A DNA stretch of 6,096 nt, taken from a virus. Positions 1 through 6,096 of the stretch are shown here, piece after piece (positions within the stretch are counted from its first letter, which is position 1; every line of letters begins with the position of its first letter). The stretch is from the IMG/VR virus record IMGVR_UViG_3300020030_000076, positions 1 to 6,096 of that record. One strand, given 5' to 3'. The position numbers and the translations under genes were made by a program. Below the pieces are notes generated by a model that saw only the letters and a program-made list of their open reading frames with translations, made no database searches and was not told the DNA's origin.

Positions 1-117
1 ATTATCATATCTTATTATTCACAAACTCGGAAGAAGTCTCAAAGGTATTACGATACTGTCACGATAAGAGTTGGAAATTCGGTCGTTCAGATTTCCAGAT
101 TGCCCGAGGTGGAGCTT
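1..117. repeat. Terminal redundancy, copy 1. Exact duplicate of 5980-6096, which marks a circular genome assembly.
   Basis: I compared the two ends base by base. attatcatatcttattattcacaaactcgg...gcccgaggtggagctt occurs at 1-117 and again at 5980-6096. The offset is 5979, a multiple of 3, so the Rep reading frame is preserved across the junction. Confidence 0.97.
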
Positions 118-1007
118 CTTCATACGTTTCGAGTTACGTTAATAGCCTTAGTTCTGCTCCCTTATTATATCGCTCATGCCGTGCGTTTAAACCCCGCTCG
201 AGAGCGTCTCTCGGATTCTTTGAGAAAGGTTGCGATCTCGTGGAAGGTGAAGAACCTTATGCGCAGATTGAGCAAAAAATCGATTCTGTCGTTAATGGAA
301 GAATCTACAACTTCAACGGCCTTAGTATTCGGTCAACTCCACCCATGTCGTATCTCCGTACCTTATTGCCCCGATTCTCGTCTGCTCGCAATGACGATAG
401 TATTGCGATTGCTCGAGTTCTTCGTGCTGTACACTCAGCGCCAAAAAGAATTGCAAAATACGGATTCATCGACTATAAACAGGATTCAGTCTTAAGTCTT
501 GTTCGTACTTATTATCAATATCTTAAGGTTAACCCTATTCTTACTGACGATGATAAGATTATACTACATTCTGCTAGGTGTCTTACTAGGTTCTGTAACA
601 GTTCTAGTGATGTCGATATTGAATCTTATATTAATAAGCTATATCGGTTATTCTTATATGTCTATAAGTTCTTCCGTAACTGGCATTTGCCTTCCTTTGG
701 CTGTAATATTGATTCTTATGCCGGTCGTATTATGTTTATTCTTAAAAAAGGTATAGAGTATGAGAAGAAAAAAAATTATGAAAGTTTACGAAATGTATTC
801 AACATACGCTCCGCTAACCCGAGCATATCGGATTGTATGTTTGCGTTGCCTGCGAACGGGCAGGAGCGTGATGTCTTGTCAGATGTTTCATGTGAAACGG
901 TTCAACTCCTTGAGCAACTCCGGTTCCGTAGTTCGACATTCTGTCGTGATATGATTAAACACAAGAAACTTAATGATGCTAATGGTGTTTTCAACCGTAT
1001 GGTTTAA
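1..1007 (+). CDS. VP4: Replication initiation protein VP4, C-terminal part. Same gene as 5307-6096, joined through the circular junction.
   Basis: The frame with codons starting at 3, 6, 9... is open from the window start to the TAA at 1005-1007 and is in phase with 5307. It reads YHILLFTNSEEVSKVLRYCHDKSWKFGRSDFQIARGGASSYVSSYVNSL... The Tyr pair Y-x3-Y (YVSSYVN, codons 123-125 and 135-137) mirrors the phiX174 gpA active-site YVAKYVN arrangement. The track ORF 240..1007 is only the tail of this gene, called from an internal GTG. The full protein is 559 aa. Confidence 0.9.
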   Translation, partial: YHILLFTNSEEVSKVLRYCHDKSWKFGRSDFQIARGGASSYVSSYVNSLSSAPLLYRSCRAFKPRSRASLGFFEKGCDLVEGEEPYAQIEQKIDSVVNGRIYNFNGLSIRSTPPMSYLRTLLPRFSSARNDDSIAIARVLRAVHSAPKRIAKYGFIDYKQDSVLSLVRTYYQYLKVNPILTDDDKIILHSARCLTRFCNSSSDVDIESYINKLYRLFLYVYKFFRNWHLPSFGCNIDSYAGRIMFILKKGIEYEKKKNYESLRNVFNIRSANPSISDCMFALPANGQERDVLSDVSCETVQLLEQLRFRSSTFCRDMIKHKKLNDANGVFNRMV

Positions 1008-1025
1008 TTTAAATATTAATTAATT

Positions 1026-2765
1026 ATGAGTGATTTTAATCCTTTAGACCGAGCTAAAATTCCTACCCATCGGTCCTCTTTCGACTTAAGTTCGAAGAAG
1101 TTGTTTACAGCCAAAGTAGGTGAAATCCTTCCTTGCTATTGGCAGATTGCTATTCCCGATACTAAGTATCGTATTTCGTCTGACTGGTTTACGCGTACTG
1201 TTCCTGTTAATACCGCTGCATATACCCGTATTAAGGAGTATTACGATTTCTACGCTGTACCGTTGCGTCTGATTTCTCGTGCACTTCCACAGGCATTCAC
1301 TCAGATGAGTGACTATATGACTAGTGCTGCTAGTTCTACTGCGAATACATCTGCACTTACTTCTGTACCCAATGTTACTCAGAATTTGTTTAATCTTTTC
1401 CTTCAGTCAGCTAATGCTGGTGACCAGACCAACACTCGTGACGATGCAGGGCTCCCTATCGTCTATGGTTCTTGTAAATTGCTTGATTTGCTTGGTTATG
1501 GCTCTATGATTGCACCTTCCAATACTGGTAAGGCTGCTATTACTAAGAAGTATTTAGGTGTTGATAATCTTGGTGATGCTGATAATCCTCTGGTTTATCA
1601 GACTTCGCAGACAGTCAATGCTCTTCCATTCCTTGCCTATCAGAAGATTTATTATGATTTTTTCAGTAATTCTCAATGGGAAAAACATAAGGCTTATGCT
1701 TATAATGTAGACTATTGGTCTGGAACTGGTGCTATTGGATTGGTTACGGATATGGTTCAGCTTCGTTATGCGAATTATCCGAAGGACTATTTCATGGGTA
1801 TGCTTCCATCTTCTCAGTATGGTTCGGTAGCTGTTTTGTCTGGTGTATTGTCCCCTTCTGATAACCCGTCCCGTGTTTTTGCTTGTACTTCCGATACTGA
1901 TTCTGTTGGCTCTATTTTGAATCCTGTCTCTTCTAATACAGTTTTTACTAATGATACTTCTGCCTCTGTTCGCTATGCTACTCTTAATTCTGACCTTTCC
2001 GCCCTTTCGATTCGTGCAACTGAATACCTTCAGCGCTGGAAAGAGGTAGTTCAATTCTCTAGTAAGGACTATTCAGACCAGATGGCTGCTCAGTTTGGTA
2101 TTAAGGCTCCCGAATACATGGGCAACCATGCGCATTATATTGGAGGCTGGTCTAGTGTTATTAATATCAATGAAGTGGTTAATACTAATCTTGATACTGA
2201 TTCTTCGCAGGCTTCTATTGCCGGTAAAGGAATTTCAAGTAATTCTGGCCATACTCTTACTTATGATTGTGGTGCTGAGCATCAGATTATTATGTGTGTA
2301 TATCATGCTGTACCTATGTTGGATTGGAATTTAACAGGTCAGGCTCCTCAGCTGACTGTTACTGCTATATCTGACTTTCCTCAACCTGCATTTGACCAGC
2401 TTGGTATGCAGTCTGTCCCTGCTCTTAATCTTCAGAATAATCCAAGTCGAAATGTTTCCGGCGCTCTTGGTTATAATCTTCGTTATTGGCAGTGGAAGTC
2501 CAATATTGATACCGTCCATGCTGGATTTCGCGCTGGTGCTGCTTATCAGTCTTGGGCTGCTCCTCTTGATGGTTGGCAGGTACTGACTTCCGGTGGTGCT
2601 TGGTCTTATCAATCCATGAAGGTTCGTCCTCAGCAATTGAATTCTATTTTCGTTCCTCAAGTTGATGCTACGAACTGTTCTGTTGCATTTGACCAGTTAT
2701 TATGTAATGTTAATTTTCAAGTATATGCTGTTCAGAACTTGGATAGAAATGGTTTACCTTTTTAA
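1026..2765 (+). CDS. VP1: Major capsid protein (Microviridae VP1 / F-like)
   Basis: 579-aa ORF and the largest gene. Its N-terminus, ...HRSSFDLSSKKLFTAKVGEILPCYWQIAIPDTKY...YTRIKEYYDFYAVPLRLI, matches the conserved N-terminal block of Microviridae VP1/F proteins. Third-position T bias is strong. The AT-rich leader has no Shine-Dalgarno sequence. Confidence 0.93.
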   Translation: MSDFNPLDRAKIPTHRSSFDLSSKKLFTAKVGEILPCYWQIAIPDTKYRISSDWFTRTVPVNTAAYTRIKEYYDFYAVPLRLISRALPQAFTQMSDYMTSAASSTANTSALTSVPNVTQNLFNLFLQSANAGDQTNTRDDAGLPIVYGSCKLLDLLGYGSMIAPSNTGKAAITKKYLGVDNLGDADNPLVYQTSQTVNALPFLAYQKIYYDFFSNSQWEKHKAYAYNVDYWSGTGAIGLVTDMVQLRYANYPKDYFMGMLPSSQYGSVAVLSGVLSPSDNPSRVFACTSDTDSVGSILNPVSSNTVFTNDTSASVRYATLNSDLSALSIRATEYLQRWKEVVQFSSKDYSDQMAAQFGIKAPEYMGNHAHYIGGWSSVININEVVNTNLDTDSSQASIAGKGISSNSGHTLTYDCGAEHQIIMCVYHAVPMLDWNLTGQAPQLTVTAISDFPQPAFDQLGMQSVPALNLQNNPSRNVSGALGYNLRYWQWKSNIDTVHAGFRAGAAYQSWAAPLDGWQVLTSGGAWSYQSMKVRPQQLNSIFVPQVDATNCSVAFDQLLCNVNFQVYAVQNLDRNGLPF

Positions 2766-2775
2766 TTAATTGATT

Positions 2776-3219
2776 ATGAGAAGTTTTGCTTATAAAAATC
2801 CCGATTATATTAAGAATGAGGTTGTTCCCGAGTTAATTGAGGATAACCCGTGTTATCAGCAGTCTGCATATGATTCAGTCATGTACGATGAAACTCCAGA
2901 CGGTGATTTGATTCAAGCTGATATGACCCAGATTTTGCTGAATCAGGAAAAATATCGTCGTTTGCTTGGTGATATGAACGTTCAGAATATCCTTGCCCAG
3001 ATGCATCCTACTCAGTCTACTGTTATGGATGGTATGACTGATGAAGAACGGTTTAATTGTGTTATTTCTCGTCATTGTCAGACGATGTCTGAAAGACAAG
3101 CTGTTCTTCAACAGCTGGCTGATGAGAAGTCTGAACTTTCTAAATATGCTGAAGCTATGTTGGCCGAGCAGAAGTCAGAGCCCGTTCCTGCGCCCGCCCC
3201 TGACACCGTTGCTCAATGA
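2776..3219 (+). CDS. Small acidic protein, possibly the internal scaffolding protein (VP3-like). Function not proven.
   Basis: The track ORF 2770..3219 starts at a TTG. The first ATG is at 2776 (MRSFAYKNPDYIK...). The gene is about 147 aa, sits between VP1 and VP2, and shows the same codon bias. Its stop overlaps the VP2 ATG (ATGA at 3216-3219). I recognise no diagnostic motif, so the VP3 label rests on size and position only. Confidence 0.55.
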   Translation: MRSFAYKNPDYIKNEVVPELIEDNPCYQQSAYDSVMYDETPDGDLIQADMTQILLNQEKYRRLLGDMNVQNILAQMHPTQSTVMDGMTDEERFNCVISRHCQTMSERQAVLQQLADEKSELSKYAEAMLAEQKSEPVPAPAPDTVAQ

Positions 3220-4331
3220 GGTTCTATGATATTGGAGAAAGCCCCTTAATGGGGCTCTCCGAGAAGCATATTGCTCCGCTCGTTCTTGGAGGCATTATCG
3301 CTGCCGGTGCTTCACTTGCTGGTAATGCTATTGGAGCGTCGTCTCAGAATAAGACTAACCAGACTAGTATTGATATTAATCGTGAGAATAATGCGTTTAA
3401 TGCTCAGCAGGCCCAGATTCAGCGTGACTGGCAAGAAAAAATGTGGGGAATGAATAATTCTTACAATTCCCCCAATGCGATGATTTCTCGTGGCTTGAAC
3501 CCGTTTGTCCAAGGCTCTGCTGCTATGGCTGGTTCTAGGTCTCCCGCTTCTGGTGGTGCTGCTGCTTCTGCTGCTTCTGCCCCTAGTTTACAGGCTTTTC
3601 GTCCCGACTTTTCGGATGTCGGTACTGCTCTTGCTTCTATGGCACAGGCTCGTGCTGCTATGATTAATGCTGAGCAGAATGCTGCTCTTACTCCGTATAA
3701 GATGCAGCAGATTTTAGGCGATACCAATTATCGTAATATTGGTGTTGGCCAGTCTGGCTATTGGAATGCATCTACTGGTAGAAAGTCCGCTTTGCTTGAC
3801 CAGTCTAAGGAATATCAGGAACTTAAGAATATGGAGTTTGCCGGTCGTCTTACTTCAGCTCAAGAATCCCAGATTCTACTCGATTCTCAAGCTCAACAGA
3901 TATTGAGTAAGTATCTTGATGAACAACAGCAGGCTGATTTGTTTATTAAAGGTCAGACTTTGGCTAATCTTTATGCTCAAGGCGCTCTTTCTGAAGCACA
4001 GTACAAAAATCAGATGGCCCAAGCTGTTAAGACTTCCGCTGAAACGAACGGTATTCGTATTAGTAACAGGATTGCTGAGCAGACGGCTGATTCATTGATT
4101 TATGCTAATATTCAAGCTAATCGTGCTCGTGGTCTGTCTTCTCTATGGGATTCTAAGAATACCAACGTTCTTAAGAATATAGAATATTCTAAGGATAAGG
4201 CTTTGCGTGATTATTATAAGTGGAGTTCTAAACAGAAACAGAAGGACGTTAACTCTTATGAATTGCGTAATGCCCTTGATTACGGTACTCGTGTTTTTCA
4301 AGGTGTTGGTAACAGTATCGGTAGAAAGTAG
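3216..4331 (+). CDS. VP2: Minor capsid / DNA pilot protein (Microviridae VP2, H-like)
   Basis: 371-aa ORF. It has an N-terminal hydrophobic Gly/Ala segment (IAPLVLGGIIAAGASLAGNAIGA), followed by NAFNAQQAQIQRDWQEKMWGMNNSYNSPNAMISRGLNPFV, an Ala/Ser/Gly-rich linker and a Gln-rich helical C-terminal half. This is the typical VP2 architecture. The start is ambiguous. The ATG at 3216 overlaps the upstream stop. An in-frame ATG at 3249 is preceded by GGAG (3234-3237). Confidence 0.85.
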   Translation: MRFYDIGESPLMGLSEKHIAPLVLGGIIAAGASLAGNAIGASSQNKTNQTSIDINRENNAFNAQQAQIQRDWQEKMWGMNNSYNSPNAMISRGLNPFVQGSAAMAGSRSPASGGAAASAASAPSLQAFRPDFSDVGTALASMAQARAAMINAEQNAALTPYKMQQILGDTNYRNIGVGQSGYWNASTGRKSALLDQSKEYQELKNMEFAGRLTSAQESQILLDSQAQQILSKYLDEQQQADLFIKGQTLANLYAQGALSEAQYKNQMAQAVKTSAETNGIRISNRIAEQTADSLIYANIQANRARGLSSLWDSKNTNVLKNIEYSKDKALRDYYKWSSKQKQKDVNSYELRNALDYGTRVFQGVGNSIGRK

Positions 4332-4409
4332 TCATTCTTCAGGACTAGAAGCCCATCGTGGCGTTTGAGCGATATACACCCGCTGCCCGCGTAGGGCCTG
4401 ATCGAAAAA

Positions 4410-4457
4410 CGGAGCGGAGCGACTTCCTTATAGGAGCGCCCCGCTCCGGTATTTTAG
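4410..4457 (+). terminator. GC-rich extended hairpin followed by a T-tract. Candidate intrinsic terminator of the capsid-gene transcript, or alternatively a structural element of the ssDNA.
   Basis: cggagcgg (4410-4417) pairs perfectly with ccgctccg (4441-4448). Inner pairs are gcg (4419-4421) with cgc (4437-4439) and cttc (4423-4426) with ggag (4433-4436, including one G-T pair), with a 6-nt loop. The hairpin is followed by gTATTTTag (4449-4457). It lies about 80 nt after the VP2 stop. Confidence 0.45.
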
Positions 4458-4473
4458 CACGTAGGTGCGCAAA

Positions 4474-4496
4474 GGCAAGACAGTTTCTGCCTTGCC
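4474..4496 (+). other. Second hairpin in the intergenic core
   Basis: ggcaag-a-cag ttt ctg-c-cttgcc gives 6+3 bp with one A/C mismatch and a 3-nt loop. It is flanked by gcac (4457-4460) and gtgc (4497-4500), which could close a larger structure. Confidence 0.5.
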
Positions 4497-4562
4497 GTGC
4501 CTATACACCCCTGTATACATTCACTTGTTAATTAAGCGAAGCCCCTAGTTGTGTGCGAAGCA

Positions 4563-4585
4563 AATTCGAGTTATCCTCTCGAATT
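4563..4585. repeat. Perfect 8-bp inverted repeat AATTCGAG / CTCGAATT with a 7-nt loop
   Basis: Read directly: aattcgag (4563-4570), ttatcct, ctcgaatt (4578-4585). It is followed by the pyrimidine-rich stretch ctccatttcttgtct. Confidence 0.6.
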
Positions 4586-4651
4586 CTCCATTTCTTGTCT
4601 ATAAACGCACAACTCACACTCTACGGTAGAATCTAAAAAAAAGAGATTTCT

Positions 4652-4682
4652 TTTGGATTTATGAAAATAGTTCGTATATTTG
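4652..4682 (+). promoter_or_regulatory. Bacteroidetes-type (sigma-ABfr-like) promoter: -33 TTTG and -7 TAnnTTTG
   Basis: TTTG at 4652-4655 and TATATTTG at 4675-4682 are separated by 19 nt. An upstream A8 tract lies at 4635-4642. In a by-eye scan of the window I found no other TAnnTTTG match. It sits about 50 nt upstream of the first ATG of the small-ORF/Rep gene string. Confidence 0.55.
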
Positions 4683-4731
4683 CCCCAGTTAGAAGTTACA
4701 ACTATTATTAACCCTTTAAATTTTTACAATT

Positions 4732-4926
4732 ATGCAAAAGTTTATTATTTCAGTTAAAGAAAAAAATACTGGTCGTGATGTTATCTCGCCTTATCTCGTT
4801 AATTCTCTCGCAGGTCTTGGACATTATTCTGAGCAACTTTCTCCGATGGGTCTTATTATTATTGTGGATTCGATTAAAGAAGAGGATGATTTTGTTGACC
4901 TTAAATCTCAAAGTAATGAAAACTAG
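4732..4926 (+). CDS. Hypothetical 64-aa protein with an acidic C-terminus
   Basis: ATG at 4732 and TAG at 4924-4926. Third-position T bias is very strong (ttt att att ... ggt cgt gat gtt ...), matching the other phage genes. It is the first ORF after the promoter. I recognise no motif. Confidence 0.6.
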   Translation: MQKFIISVKEKNTGRDVISPYLVNSLAGLGHYSEQLSPMGLIIIVDSIKEEDDFVDLKSQSNEN

Positions 4927-4999
4927 TAATATTTGGAAAATTGTAATTGGAGCTGTTTCTGCTGCTCTAGGTTATATTCTTAATTCTATTGGATTATGA
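4916..4999 (+). CDS. 27-aa single-pass membrane peptide (MKTSNIWKIVIGAVSAALGYILNSIGL). Candidate holin-like or lysis accessory peptide.
   Basis: ATG at 4916-4918. The start overlaps the orf64 stop by 11 nt, and the stop overlaps the peptidase start (ATGA at 4996-4999). From 4916 onward this frame carries the genomic third-position-T bias (act agt aat att ... gct gtt tct gct gct). Upstream of 4916 the same frame (track ORF 4775..4999) has T at codon position 2 and overlaps orf64, so it is probably not coding there. Confidence 0.5.
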   Translation: MKTSNIWKIVIGAVSAALGYILNSIGL

Positions 5000-5304
5000 A
5001 TAGTACTCTTATGGATTTTCTTGACCATTTGTTATGCTTTAACTTGCATTTTACAATAACAAGCGCTAAGCGTTCTATTGCTGAAAATAAAGCTGCTGGA
5101 GGTGTTCCTAATTCACAACATTTGGTTGGAGAAGCTGTTGATATTAAGCCGTATGGTTCTACTACTTATAATCGGTTGCTCGAACATATTCATAACTATT
5201 CAGCTAGTACTCATGTGTTTGACCAACTGATATTGTATTCTACATTTATTCATATTTCATTTGGTGAGCGTAATCGCCATCAAGTTATTGACAAGCGCAA
5301 ATAA
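4996..5304 (+). CDS. Compact zinc D-Ala-D-Ala carboxypeptidase-like peptidase (M15 / LAS superfamily). Putative endolysin.
   Basis: ...ITSAKRSIAENKAAGGVPNSQHLVGEAVDI... matches the M15 signature SxxRS-x3-N-x3-GG-x3-SxH-x2-G-x-A-x-D. The H-x6-D pair is His codon 5119-5121 and Asp codon 5140-5142. A distal FIHISF His (5251-5253) is the likely third zinc ligand. The protein is 102 aa, near the minimum size for this fold. Confidence 0.8.
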   Translation: MNSTLMDFLDHLLCFNLHFTITSAKRSIAENKAAGGVPNSQHLVGEAVDIKPYGSTTYNRLLEHIHNYSASTHVFDQLILYSTFIHISFGERNRHQVIDKRK

Positions 5305-5306
5305 TT

Positions 5307-6096
5307 ATGAAATTTTCTCCCGATTTGCTTAAGGCTGTTGGCCATTGTCAGCATCGTTCATTCATCACAAATAGGTATAATGGTGCACGTATTGCAGTAG
5401 ATTGCGGTCAATGCGATTATTGTATTCATAAGAAAGCCCAGAAAGCGTCTATGCGCGTGAGGACCGCTGGAAGTGCTTTTAAGTATTCTTATTTTGTTAC
5501 ACTTACTTATGATAATGAACATATTCCTCTTATGACTTGTAAGGTTTTGCAGAGTGATTATGAGGATGTTATAGGCATTTCGGGAGATATTCATTTTGGT
5601 CATGAATTCCACAAGTATATTCCTGTTTCTGAATATCAATGTGATGATAACTCCACTTTGCGTCATATATTCTTCGAGCAAGTACAAGGCACAGTGCCGT
5701 TTGACCGTGAAATTAAGGAATATGTTCCTGTTAGGGATAATTGGTTTCTTAGTATGGATGCTATTCGTAGTTTTATCTATAAGACGCAGTCGGTTGACAA
5801 AACGGATTATCCCGCTTCTGGACAATACGGTCGTGATAACCTTATTCCCTTTCTAAACTATGCTGATGTTCAGAATTATATTAAAAGATTACGTAAATAT
5901 TTATATAAGCAATTAGGTTCTTATGAAACGTTACATTTCTACGCTGTCGGTGAGTACGGCCCTGTCCATTTCCGCCCGCATTATCATATCTTATTATTCA
6001 CAAACTCGGAAGAAGTCTCAAAGGTATTACGATACTGTCACGATAAGAGTTGGAAATTCGGTCGTTCAGATTTCCAGATTGCCCGAGGTGGAGCTT
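5307..6096 (+). CDS. VP4: Replication initiation protein (Microviridae VP4, HUH rolling-circle endonuclease), N-terminal part. The frame is open to the window end and continues at 1-1007.
   Basis: ATG at 5307, 2 nt after the upstream TAA. My hand translation found no stop through 6096: MKFSPDLLKAVGHCQHRSFITNRYNGARIAVDCGQCDYCIHKK...FVTLTYDNEH...GEYGPVHFRPHYHILLFTN... A CGxCxxC cysteine cluster lies at 5403-5423. RCR motif I (FVTLTY) is at 5493-5510. The HUH motif (H-Y-H) is at 5979-5987. This gene is absent from the ORF track because there is no stop before the window end. Confidence 0.9.
   Translation, partial: MKFSPDLLKAVGHCQHRSFITNRYNGARIAVDCGQCDYCIHKKAQKASMRVRTAGSAFKYSYFVTLTYDNEHIPLMTCKVLQSDYEDVIGISGDIHFGHEFHKYIPVSEYQCDDNSTLRHIFFEQVQGTVPFDREIKEYVPVRDNWFLSMDAIRSFIYKTQSVDKTDYPASGQYGRDNLIPFLNYADVQNYIKRLRKYLYKQLGSYETLHFYAVGEYGPVHFRPHYHILLFTNSEEVSKVLRYCHDKSWKFGRSDFQIARGGA
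5980..6096. repeat. Terminal redundancy, copy 2. Exact duplicate of 1-117.
   Basis: Same comparison as for copy 1. The repeat lies inside the Rep coding sequence and includes the HUH motif codons. This points to an assembly overlap of a circle rather than a biological terminal repeat. Confidence 0.97.

Follow-up and report, generated by a model that had tools for sequence, protein, structure and literature searches.

A conserved 27-residue transmembrane peptide encoded beside a compact M15 peptidase in a microvirus genome: a candidate two-component lysis module

M15_3 peptidase genes were identified in 11 human-associated Microviridae by Roux et al. in 2012, with a proposed endolysin role and an adjacent 'unknown ORF' (open reading frame) in five of the 11 cases (PMC3394797). 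Kirchberger et al. in 2022, and papers after it, regard peptidases as the accessory genes usually associated with lysis in microviruses (PMC9239249; PMC11499846). We analyzed a microvirus genome contained in a 6,096-nt stretch, positions 1 to 6,096 of the IMG/VR record IMGVR_UViG_3300020030_000076 (hereafter the window), in which a 102-aa M15 peptidase gene is overlapped at its start codon by the gene of a 27-aa transmembrane peptide that we call TM27. The enzyme belongs to the same family, PF08291, as the M15_3 proteins of gut Microviridae, including Occultatumvirinae, and is found in the same kind of genome, where it is likewise proposed to be a horizontally acquired endolysin (PMC3394797, PMC9239249, PMC11499846); it differs in being shortened to ~102 aa from the published 130-150-aa form. 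A microviral M15 peptidase is not in itself notable, being textbook for the group, and GenBank relatives of the window genome already label the 102-aa ORF 'peptidase'. An earlier note on this DNA, made from the letters alone, was correct in stating that M15 ORFs had been reported from metagenomic Microviridae (PMC3394797). What is new is the peptide: how widely it occurs, the selection acting on it, and the fact that it does not depend on the enzyme. The earlier note named no described transmembrane partner and we found none: the words 'transmembrane' and 'holin' occur zero times in PMC9239249, PMC9865509, and PMC13064476, and in a literature search of incomplete coverage no paper tied such a peptide to microviral peptidases or lysis, or the 'smalltalk' proteins discussed below to microviruses or to lysis.

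The positions, both translations, and the ATGA overlap reported in the earlier note are exact. The features of the pair are as follows.
4916-4999, + strand: TM27, 27 aa; ATG at 4916-4918, stop codon TGA at 4997-4999.
4996-5304, + strand: peptidase, 102 aa, 11.6 kDa; ATG at 4996-4998, stop codon at 5302-5304.
4996-4999, + strand: ATGA junction, in which the TM27 stop codon overlaps the peptidase start codon.
5113-5142, + strand: codons of the predicted zinc-binding motif S40-x-H42-x2-G45-x-A47-x-D49; H42 at 5119-5121, D49 at 5140-5142.
5251-5253, + strand: codon of H86, the predicted distal third zinc ligand, in the FIHIS strand; a nearly invariant column in predicted strand E85-88.

TM27 (MKTSNIWKIVIGAVSAALGYILNSIGL) consists of a basic 8-residue head, MKTSNIWK (net charge +2), and a 19-residue uncharged helix, IVIGAVSAALGYILNSIGL, that runs to the C-terminus. 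It is present with an identical ATGA junction in 61 of 61 genomes of the window's clade (clade 1); 60 IMG/VR relatives, whose peptidases are 64-92% identical to that of the window, all encode MK..NIWKI[VI]IGAVSAALGYILN[AS]IGL ending in ATGA, and the junction recurs in 47 further contigs beyond the 61. In clade 1 the ratio of non-synonymous to synonymous variation (pN/pS) of TM27 is 0.12 in its own frame versus 1.38 and 4.25 in the other two frames. Synonymous variation is found at nearly every codon, and serine codons switch between the TCN and AGT families with the residue kept. The own-frame ratio in a second, diverged clade (clade 2) is 0.09, and other-frame ratios across the two clades range from 1.2 to 4.3. 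A hidden Markov model (HMM) built from eight peptide variants detected approximately one copy per genome in 135 of 141 loci. These data show that TM27 is a genuine gene under strong constraint.

Other starts for the peptide were considered. A longer isoform of 73-74 aa with two helices, in a frame that stays open for at least 46 codons upstream to a conserved ATG, was rejected: 61% of codon-order shuffles of the overlapping upstream gene ORF64 keep that frame open, which voids the evidence for it, and many clade-2 genomes have a stop codon just before their 29-aa ORF. A 37-aa form (MILLTLNLKV followed by TM27) is possible from an in-frame ATG 10 codons upstream (4886-4915) and is the start used in several public gene calls; that Met is not conserved among relatives.

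Twelve peptide variants share a single design, a head of 7-10 residues with a net charge of +1 to +3 followed by an uncharged segment of 18-23 residues, which in all 12 reaches or nearly reaches the C-terminus. In most of the 12, small and polar residues (G, A, S, T, N, Q, C) cluster on one helical face, with a shuffle p value of at most 0.009 in seven variants and 0.053 in four; the clustering is not significant in the peptides of L136 and L231 (GenBank OR148991 and OQ686874). A helical-wheel reading places G12, S15, A16, G19, N23, and G26 on this face in TM27. From this arrangement we infer an N-in/C-out topology and oligomerization through the small-residue face.

The association with the enzyme extends beyond clade 1. 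Clade-2 peptidases are also ~102 aa, are ~40-50% identical to P0137, the query that retrieved them, with representatives ~45% identical to the window enzyme, and have the 29-aa peptide MKSETKSKIWSAIIAAAVSLLTSIAQIFS directly upstream; in a search with the clade-2 peptide, the peptidase was also present in 61 of 61 contigs. A third peptide form, MSTENNKKTNWITAVISAIVAALTSLLSNLA, is found in L105 and L117. Among more distant contigs, 63 of 65 showed the peptide beside the short peptidase on first inspection, and of the two exceptions, the L121 copy was then found by HMM and the L088 copy is frameshifted. The peptide tightly adjoins an intact-looking M15 peptidase in three diverged clades, and conservation of the mini-ORF next to homologous peptidases, which the earlier note had made a test of its proposal, now extends to well over 150 contigs. 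The overlap of stop and start codons probably couples translation of peptide and enzyme. Fusion of TM27 to the enzyme by frameshift or read-through was considered and rejected, as the offsets between the two genes vary (+1, -5, -6, -12, -15, -16, -19, -24); with spacing and frame variable between clades, the two products must be separate polypeptides.

L088 (~3300-3330) is the sole short-peptidase genome of the set with a disrupted peptide, TKSIIWSAIIAAAVSLL followed by out-of-frame sequence, the result of a sequencing indel or else a pseudogene. Seven annotated relatives with the peptide 5' of a short peptidase were inspected, and none annotates the mini-ORF: each has either a gap without annotation at that place or a peptidase call extended wrongly across it. 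One GenBank record, PP511887 (Dulem virus 238; L066 3985-4359), has a 124-aa peptidase coding sequence called from an upstream in-frame ATG; it overruns the unannotated transmembrane mini-ORF in another frame, and its start is probably mis-annotated. The exact clade-1 consensus and clade-2 peptides are public only as 'hypothetical protein' (JGI, and NCBI third-party annotations of Microviridae metagenome-assembled genomes, MAGs), and the window's own TM27 variant has no identical entry in the public protein collection that was looked up.

Relatives of the peptide also accompany full-length peptidases, in other microvirus families and other gene arrangements. MG945328, MG945336, MG945875, MT135448, MT135365, and MT135399 encode a full-length peptidase (131-132 aa in the first two) and a 29-30-aa peptide, e.g., MTKEQLNKISNALCALISAVCAALSYFFS, whose gene overlaps or follows the 3' end of that for the peptidase and immediately precedes the Rep gene. 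In MG945328 and MG945336, the peptidase lies within a ~700-nt recombinant block described by Kirchberger et al. (PMC9239249). An IMG/VR search with the MG945328 peptidase returned nothing, and tblastn against GenBank was used for its relatives. OQ686874 encodes a 166-aa peptidase and a 28-aa peptide located 3' of the peptidase gene, at the end of the linearized record, and OR148991 encodes a 144-aa peptidase with the peptide ~500 nt upstream. The earlier note asked whether M15-positive microviruses always carry an upstream mini-ORF: some, such as phiHBP1, lack the family, and others carry it downstream or ~500 nt away. In two genomes with a full-length M15 gene and no member of the TM27 family, other small hydrophobic ORFs were seen, one of 40 aa with a basic tail, annotated as hypothetical (L135, 3245-3367), and one of 47 aa between Rep and the peptidase (L138, 4963-5106); these may be analogous partners.

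The peptidase matches Pfam PF08291 Peptidase_M15_3 (E=1.7e-10) with 41.4 bits against a gathering cut-off of 23.2 bits, which bears out its earlier assignment to the M15/LAS peptidases from motifs alone, and it matches PHROG 894 'endolysin' with E=5.5e-16. Only PF08291 profile positions 38-108 of 108 are covered, so that the N-terminal third (~37 positions) is absent and the domain is incomplete. Typical relatives, found by searching 1.84 billion representative proteins, are 130-150 aa in length, with 35-50 extra N-terminal residues and homology starting near residue 50; forms of ~100 aa coexist with them and are conserved in several clades. Across 32 diverse relatives, S23, R26, N31, G36, S40, H42, G45, A47, and D49 are invariant, and D76, Q77, Y81, and H86 are nearly so, with H86 found in at least 90%. 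The H-x6-D motif aligns with NSRHMYGHAAD of 1LBU, the Streptomyces albus Zn DD-peptidase, and the enzyme keeps the predicted zinc ligands H42, D49, and H86.

The AlphaFold2 model of the enzyme is confident (pLDDT 94.5) and has a compact fold despite the absent N-terminal segment. The comparison with LAS folds that the earlier note had called for gave as best Foldseek matches in the PDB 1LBU (probability 1.00, root-mean-square deviation 2.6 Å over 78 columns), VanY, the RB49 L-alanoyl-D-glutamate peptidase, and LdcB, with modest E-values of 1e-3 to 0.4. There were 47 matches to viral structures in BFVD at E≤1e-3; the named ones are mostly M15/M15A peptidases, several of them microviral, and some (ranks 26, 38, and 43) are M15A domains in virion-associated proteins of tailed phages. 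The pN/pS of the peptidase is 0.28, indicating purifying selection. Sequence and model together suggest that it is probably an active, compact LAS peptidase, and homologs are labeled endolysin in Stenotrophomonas, Burkholderia, Bacteroides, and Proteus phages. As noted previously, the enzyme lacks a signal sequence: no signal peptide or hydrophobic segment was detected, the maximum Kyte-Doolittle 17-residue mean being 1.15, at residue 74. A signal-anchor-release endolysin was rejected on the same ground, the lack of a hydrophobic N-terminus.

The major capsid protein (MCP) shares 36-38% identity along its length with its counterpart in phiHBP1, a phage of Bacteroides fragilis. A search of GTDB genomes with the window peptidase gave no relatives; a clade-2 short peptidase gave distant matches only, all in Bacteroidota MAGs, and no ORF of the peptide family was found near them. 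One member of the peptide family is encoded by a Segatella prophage. The host is likely a Gram-negative Bacteroidota, in which case the enzyme must cross the inner membrane.

DUF6486/'smalltalk' is a catalogued family with no assigned function, found in Bacteroidota genomes, that has the same size (29-31-aa profiles) and architecture as the TM27 family. TM27 itself has no match in Pfam, PHROGs, or NCBIfam, and none to DUF6486/NF033879 at E≤10; the clade-2 and L139-type peptides fall below both the DUF6486 and the 'smalltalk' thresholds. Matches to DUF6486 at E≤10 were obtained for four of 14 variants. The OR148991 peptide passes both Pfam PF20096 (DUF6486; 39.9 bits) and NCBIfam NF033879 'smalltalk protein' (33.7 bits), and the OQ686874 peptide is just above the Pfam cut-off (22.9 vs 22.7 bits). 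TM27 and the OR148991 peptide align without gaps over their full length, with a pairwise E-value of 4e-6. The OR148991 peptide is identical to RefSeq WP_314671407.1, a 'smalltalk protein' of Segatella salivae, and is also encoded by an integrated microvirus prophage (L287, 5115-11298) in the 42.7-kb metagenomic contig BNJU01003873.1. The 'smalltalk' and M15 genes lie at opposite ends of this prophage, which would place the attachment site within the ~500-nt spacer of the circular form, OR148991.

The peptide is also found without the enzyme. A degenerate DNA pattern of the clade-1 peptide core detected at least 119 microvirus-sized IMG/VR contigs. Of the 57 contigs that were new, the peptidase is at the ATGA junction in 47 and is present but obscured by assembly or wrap problems in another three; in the other seven, Rep begins ~50 nt after an intact peptide (...GYILSAIGV), and there is no peptidase anywhere in the contig. 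These seven (L145, L167, L170, L176, L181, L184, and L197), of which three are closed circles, encode Rep proteins 78-90% identical to that of the window and keep ORF64 and all other genes; the L145 peptide is MKRSNFWKIVIGAISAALGYILSAIGV. In a neighbor-joining tree of 120 Rep sequences, calculated without bootstrapping, nine peptidase-less genomes are scattered, which suggests repeated loss of the peptidase or a deletion spread by recombination. Because the peptidase is absent from nine of 120 relatives, the pair is not obligate, and the peptide is a core gene and the enzyme an accessory one.

The window ends in a 117-nt exact direct repeat (1-117 = 5980-6096) and therefore represents a closed circular genome of 5979 nt. 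It is a microvirus genome with Rep, MCP, a pilot-like protein, and small ORFs, all encoded on the + strand. The features outside the pair are as follows.
5307-5979 joined to 1-1007, + strand: Rep, 559 aa (PF23343, 60 bits), with its start in window 5307-6096; the gene spans the window ends in the circular form.
1026-2765, + strand: MCP (PF02305; PHROG 514).
2770-3219, + strand: 149-aa protein, no function assigned.
3216-4331, + strand: pilot-like VP2, with weak PHROG pilot-protein matches (best E=1.7e-4).
~4360-4730: non-coding stretch of ~370 nt.
4732-4926, + strand: ORF64, 64 aa, acidic; conserved, no family match.

Rep starts 3 nt past the peptidase stop codon, and the 3' end of ORF64 overlaps the TM27 start by 11 nt. 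The earlier note had called the pair promoter-proximal; the first gene after the non-coding region is ORF64, and the pair is not strictly promoter-proximal. This ORF64 is present in 70 relatives with an own-frame pN/pS of 0.42, has an isoelectric point of 4.6 and no match in Pfam, PHROG, or NCBIfam, and appears in GenBank relatives as a 'hypothetical protein'. The gene is probably cotranscribed with the TM27/peptidase pair. Its pS of 0.22 is approximately half that of TM27 (0.42) and the peptidase (0.49), and this low synonymous divergence hints at extra constraint on that DNA. In a scan for sigma-70-type signals, a model whose coverage does not extend to Bacteroidota promoters, a weak sigma-70-like site was seen at 4680-4708, 24 nt before ORF64, and a terminator-like GC hairpin at 4433-4447, after VP2; neither is above shuffle expectation. 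In the cultured phage phiHBP1, a 54-aa non-hydrophobic ORF (L067 490-654, - strand) lies directly 5' of the 134-aa peptidase, and its segment ...GYIIEILDSIR... loosely resembles ...GLIIIVDSIK... of ORF64.

The reading that we prefer, and consider about as likely as not, is that of a lysis module with two components, TM27 and the peptidase, in a microvirus of the Bacteroidota type, with the peptide as core component and the enzyme as accessory, in which a lesion-forming peptide would release or activate the enzyme. TM27 may be too short for co-translational targeting and would then insert into the inner membrane after release from the ribosome, with its N-terminus in and its C-terminus out according to the positive-inside rule. 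It would oligomerize through its small-residue face and, at a critical concentration, form holin- or viroporin-like lesions, which would admit the 11.6-kDa signal-less peptidase to the peptidoglycan, where it would cut peptide stems or cross-links. The overlapping stop and start codons would tie synthesis of the enzyme to that of the peptide. In relatives that have lost the peptidase, the peptide alone would have to suffice, through membrane damage together with host autolysins or through a block of wall synthesis. A lysis module is consistent with the reality of the peptide gene, its association with the enzyme, the predicted fold and ligands of the enzyme, the design of the helix, the lack of an export signal, and the earlier proposals of an endolysin role.

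Several observations weigh against this reading. Nine of 120 clade-1 genomes (distinct Rep sequences) have the peptide without the peptidase or a substitute enzyme, and as a canonical holin alone cannot lyse the cell, these genomes argue against a canonical holin; they favor a peptide with lytic capacity of its own. Conversely, M15-bearing microviruses without the peptide family exist, namely, the cultured B. fragilis phage phiHBP1, PQ006596, PQ006846, and PQ006251. The TM27 helix has no charged C-terminal tail, all charges being in the 8-residue N-terminal head, and no holin-family match was found in Pfam, PHROG, or NCBIfam, the LydA match of one relative being insignificant (E=0.033). The reading would require a single 19-residue helix to pass an 11.6-kDa protein, and nothing in the genome accounts for disruption of the outer membrane. 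Distant members of the peptide family belong to DUF6486/'smalltalk'. Lastly, the interval between VP2 and Rep may be the sole tolerated insertion site, which would explain adjacency without shared function.

Like the holin-endolysin cassettes of tailed phages, the locus has a small membrane protein encoded beside a signal-less muralytic enzyme, and the annotated M15 endolysins of Stenotrophomonas phage Salva, Burkholderia phage KS9, and Bacteroides phage B40-8 are homologous to the window enzyme (37-46% identity). Stop-start overlaps are a common feature of lysis cassettes. TM27 has the holin feature of a small protein with one transmembrane helix encoded next to an endolysin-like gene, whereas canonical holins have a hydrophilic, highly charged C-terminal domain; members of the TM27 family have 27-31 aa, one helix, and no charged tail, and are sometimes kept without the enzyme. 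To our knowledge the family is shorter than any known holin. Unlike tailed-phage cassettes, the window system has no spanin or other outer-membrane component. Of the miniature holin-endolysin cassette proposed in the earlier note, the adjacency and the intact-looking enzyme have stood; the holin part has not fared as well, given the peptide kept without an enzyme, its lack of a charged tail, and the absence of a holin family match.

Single-gene lysis proteins (Sgls) such as phiX174 E, the levivirus LysM/SglM (37 aa), and MS2 L are also tiny membrane peptides of small single-stranded phages, whose genomes are too small to accommodate a full lysis cassette. They share no sequence similarity with TM27, which is free-standing rather than embedded and mostly coupled to a muralytic enzyme, a component absent from Sgl systems by definition. 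The window does not encode a single-gene system, since it has the M15 peptidase; the enzyme-free condition is found only in the peptidase-less relatives, which would have to rely on a peptide of this kind. TisB (29 aa) and other type I toxins and viroporins are of similar length, with a single helix bearing a stripe of polar or small residues and an expected post-translational insertion into the membrane. The likeness is one of analogy only: TisB-type toxins have no sequence relationship to TM27, which is phage-encoded beside a wall hydrolase.

A broader form of the lysis proposal, which we regard as possible but tentative, is that the whole 27-31-aa family, including 'smalltalk'/DUF6486, is the lysis effector of Bacteroidota-infecting microviruses, lytic alone, with M15 enzymes recruited repeatedly. 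It would then be the smallest phage lysis protein, some 'smalltalk'/DUF6486 proteins would be microvirus prophage genes, and the system would be intermediate between single-gene lysis and the holin-endolysin arrangement.

Alternatively, TM27 could be a single-gene lysis protein of the phiX174 E, LysM, or MS2 L type, sufficient alone, that blocks peptidoglycan synthesis at a membrane step or activates host autolysins; the peptidase would be an optional booster, not exported by TM27, that acts only once the membrane fails, clearing the sacculus. Complete close relatives without the peptidase do keep TM27 intact, TM27 is more constrained than the enzyme (pN/pS 0.12 vs 0.28), and a small transmembrane peptide in a small single-stranded DNA (ssDNA) phage recalls the Sgls of 37-91 aa (PMC7693330, PMC12506998). 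We nevertheless think it unlikely: TM27 has no similarity to E or any Sgl family, its ATGA coupling and repeated co-location with two peptidase subfamilies suggest joint action, and an enzyme trapped in the cytoplasm would be of little benefit, yet it is kept in 61 of 61 clade-2 genomes.

A membrane role outside lysis is a further alternative, with the adjacency arising from one permissive site between VP2 and Rep. The peptide would be, for example, a burst-size factor like phiX174 K, a superinfection exclusion factor, or a replication or assembly anchor, and the peptidase would act by another route or elsewhere. The existence of TM27 without a peptidase fits such a role, as do the cataloguing of family members as DUF6486/'smalltalk' in Bacteroidota genomes with function not assigned, and the clustering of microvirus accessory genes at few positions (PMC9239249). 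A lysis function is needed, however, and the only other conserved genes seen without an assigned role are ORF64 and that of the 149-aa protein; moreover, more than 100 genomes share the stop-start overlap, and the peptide adjoins the peptidase even in reversed order. We consider a role outside lysis improbable.

Still less probable, in our judgment, is a peptidase that is not lytic, being either a virion-associated or entry-phase wall remodeler or an inactive remnant that lacks its N-terminal third. Profile positions 1-37 are indeed absent, some virion-associated proteins of tailed phages have M15A domains as well, and the peptidase is dispensable in nine of 120 relatives. Against this stand the purifying selection on the enzyme (pN/pS 0.28), the invariant catalytic motif, the confident compact fold formed without the N-terminal segment, and the conservation of ~100-aa versions across several clades. 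We know of no microvirus that packages an M15-type enzyme.

That the 27-codon ORF is a chance frame whose conservation comes from a DNA or RNA element, as its very short length and the 70 ORFs of at least 20 aa in the window might suggest, is effectively refuted by frame-specific purifying selection in two independent clades, TCN-to-AGT serine switches that preserve the residue, a family recognizable across divergent genomes at different positions, and a curated NCBIfam/Pfam family that covers distant members.

Few phages of the mammalian gut are as abundant as the microviruses, for which a lysis mechanism is established only in the phiX174-like phages. The M15 peptidase has been cited for more than a decade as a 'possible endolysin' with no account of how an enzyme without a signal crosses the inner membrane, and the peptide is a concrete candidate for that step. 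If the peptide is lytic, the pair would be a minimal lysis system for ssDNA phages, and the orphan DUF6486/'smalltalk' family in Bacteroidota would gain a function. With the peptide found both alone and beside the enzyme, these genomes would also bridge single-gene and two-component lysis as natural intermediates. Should it prove not to be lytic, TM27 remains a core gene, widespread in microviruses and absent from most annotations.

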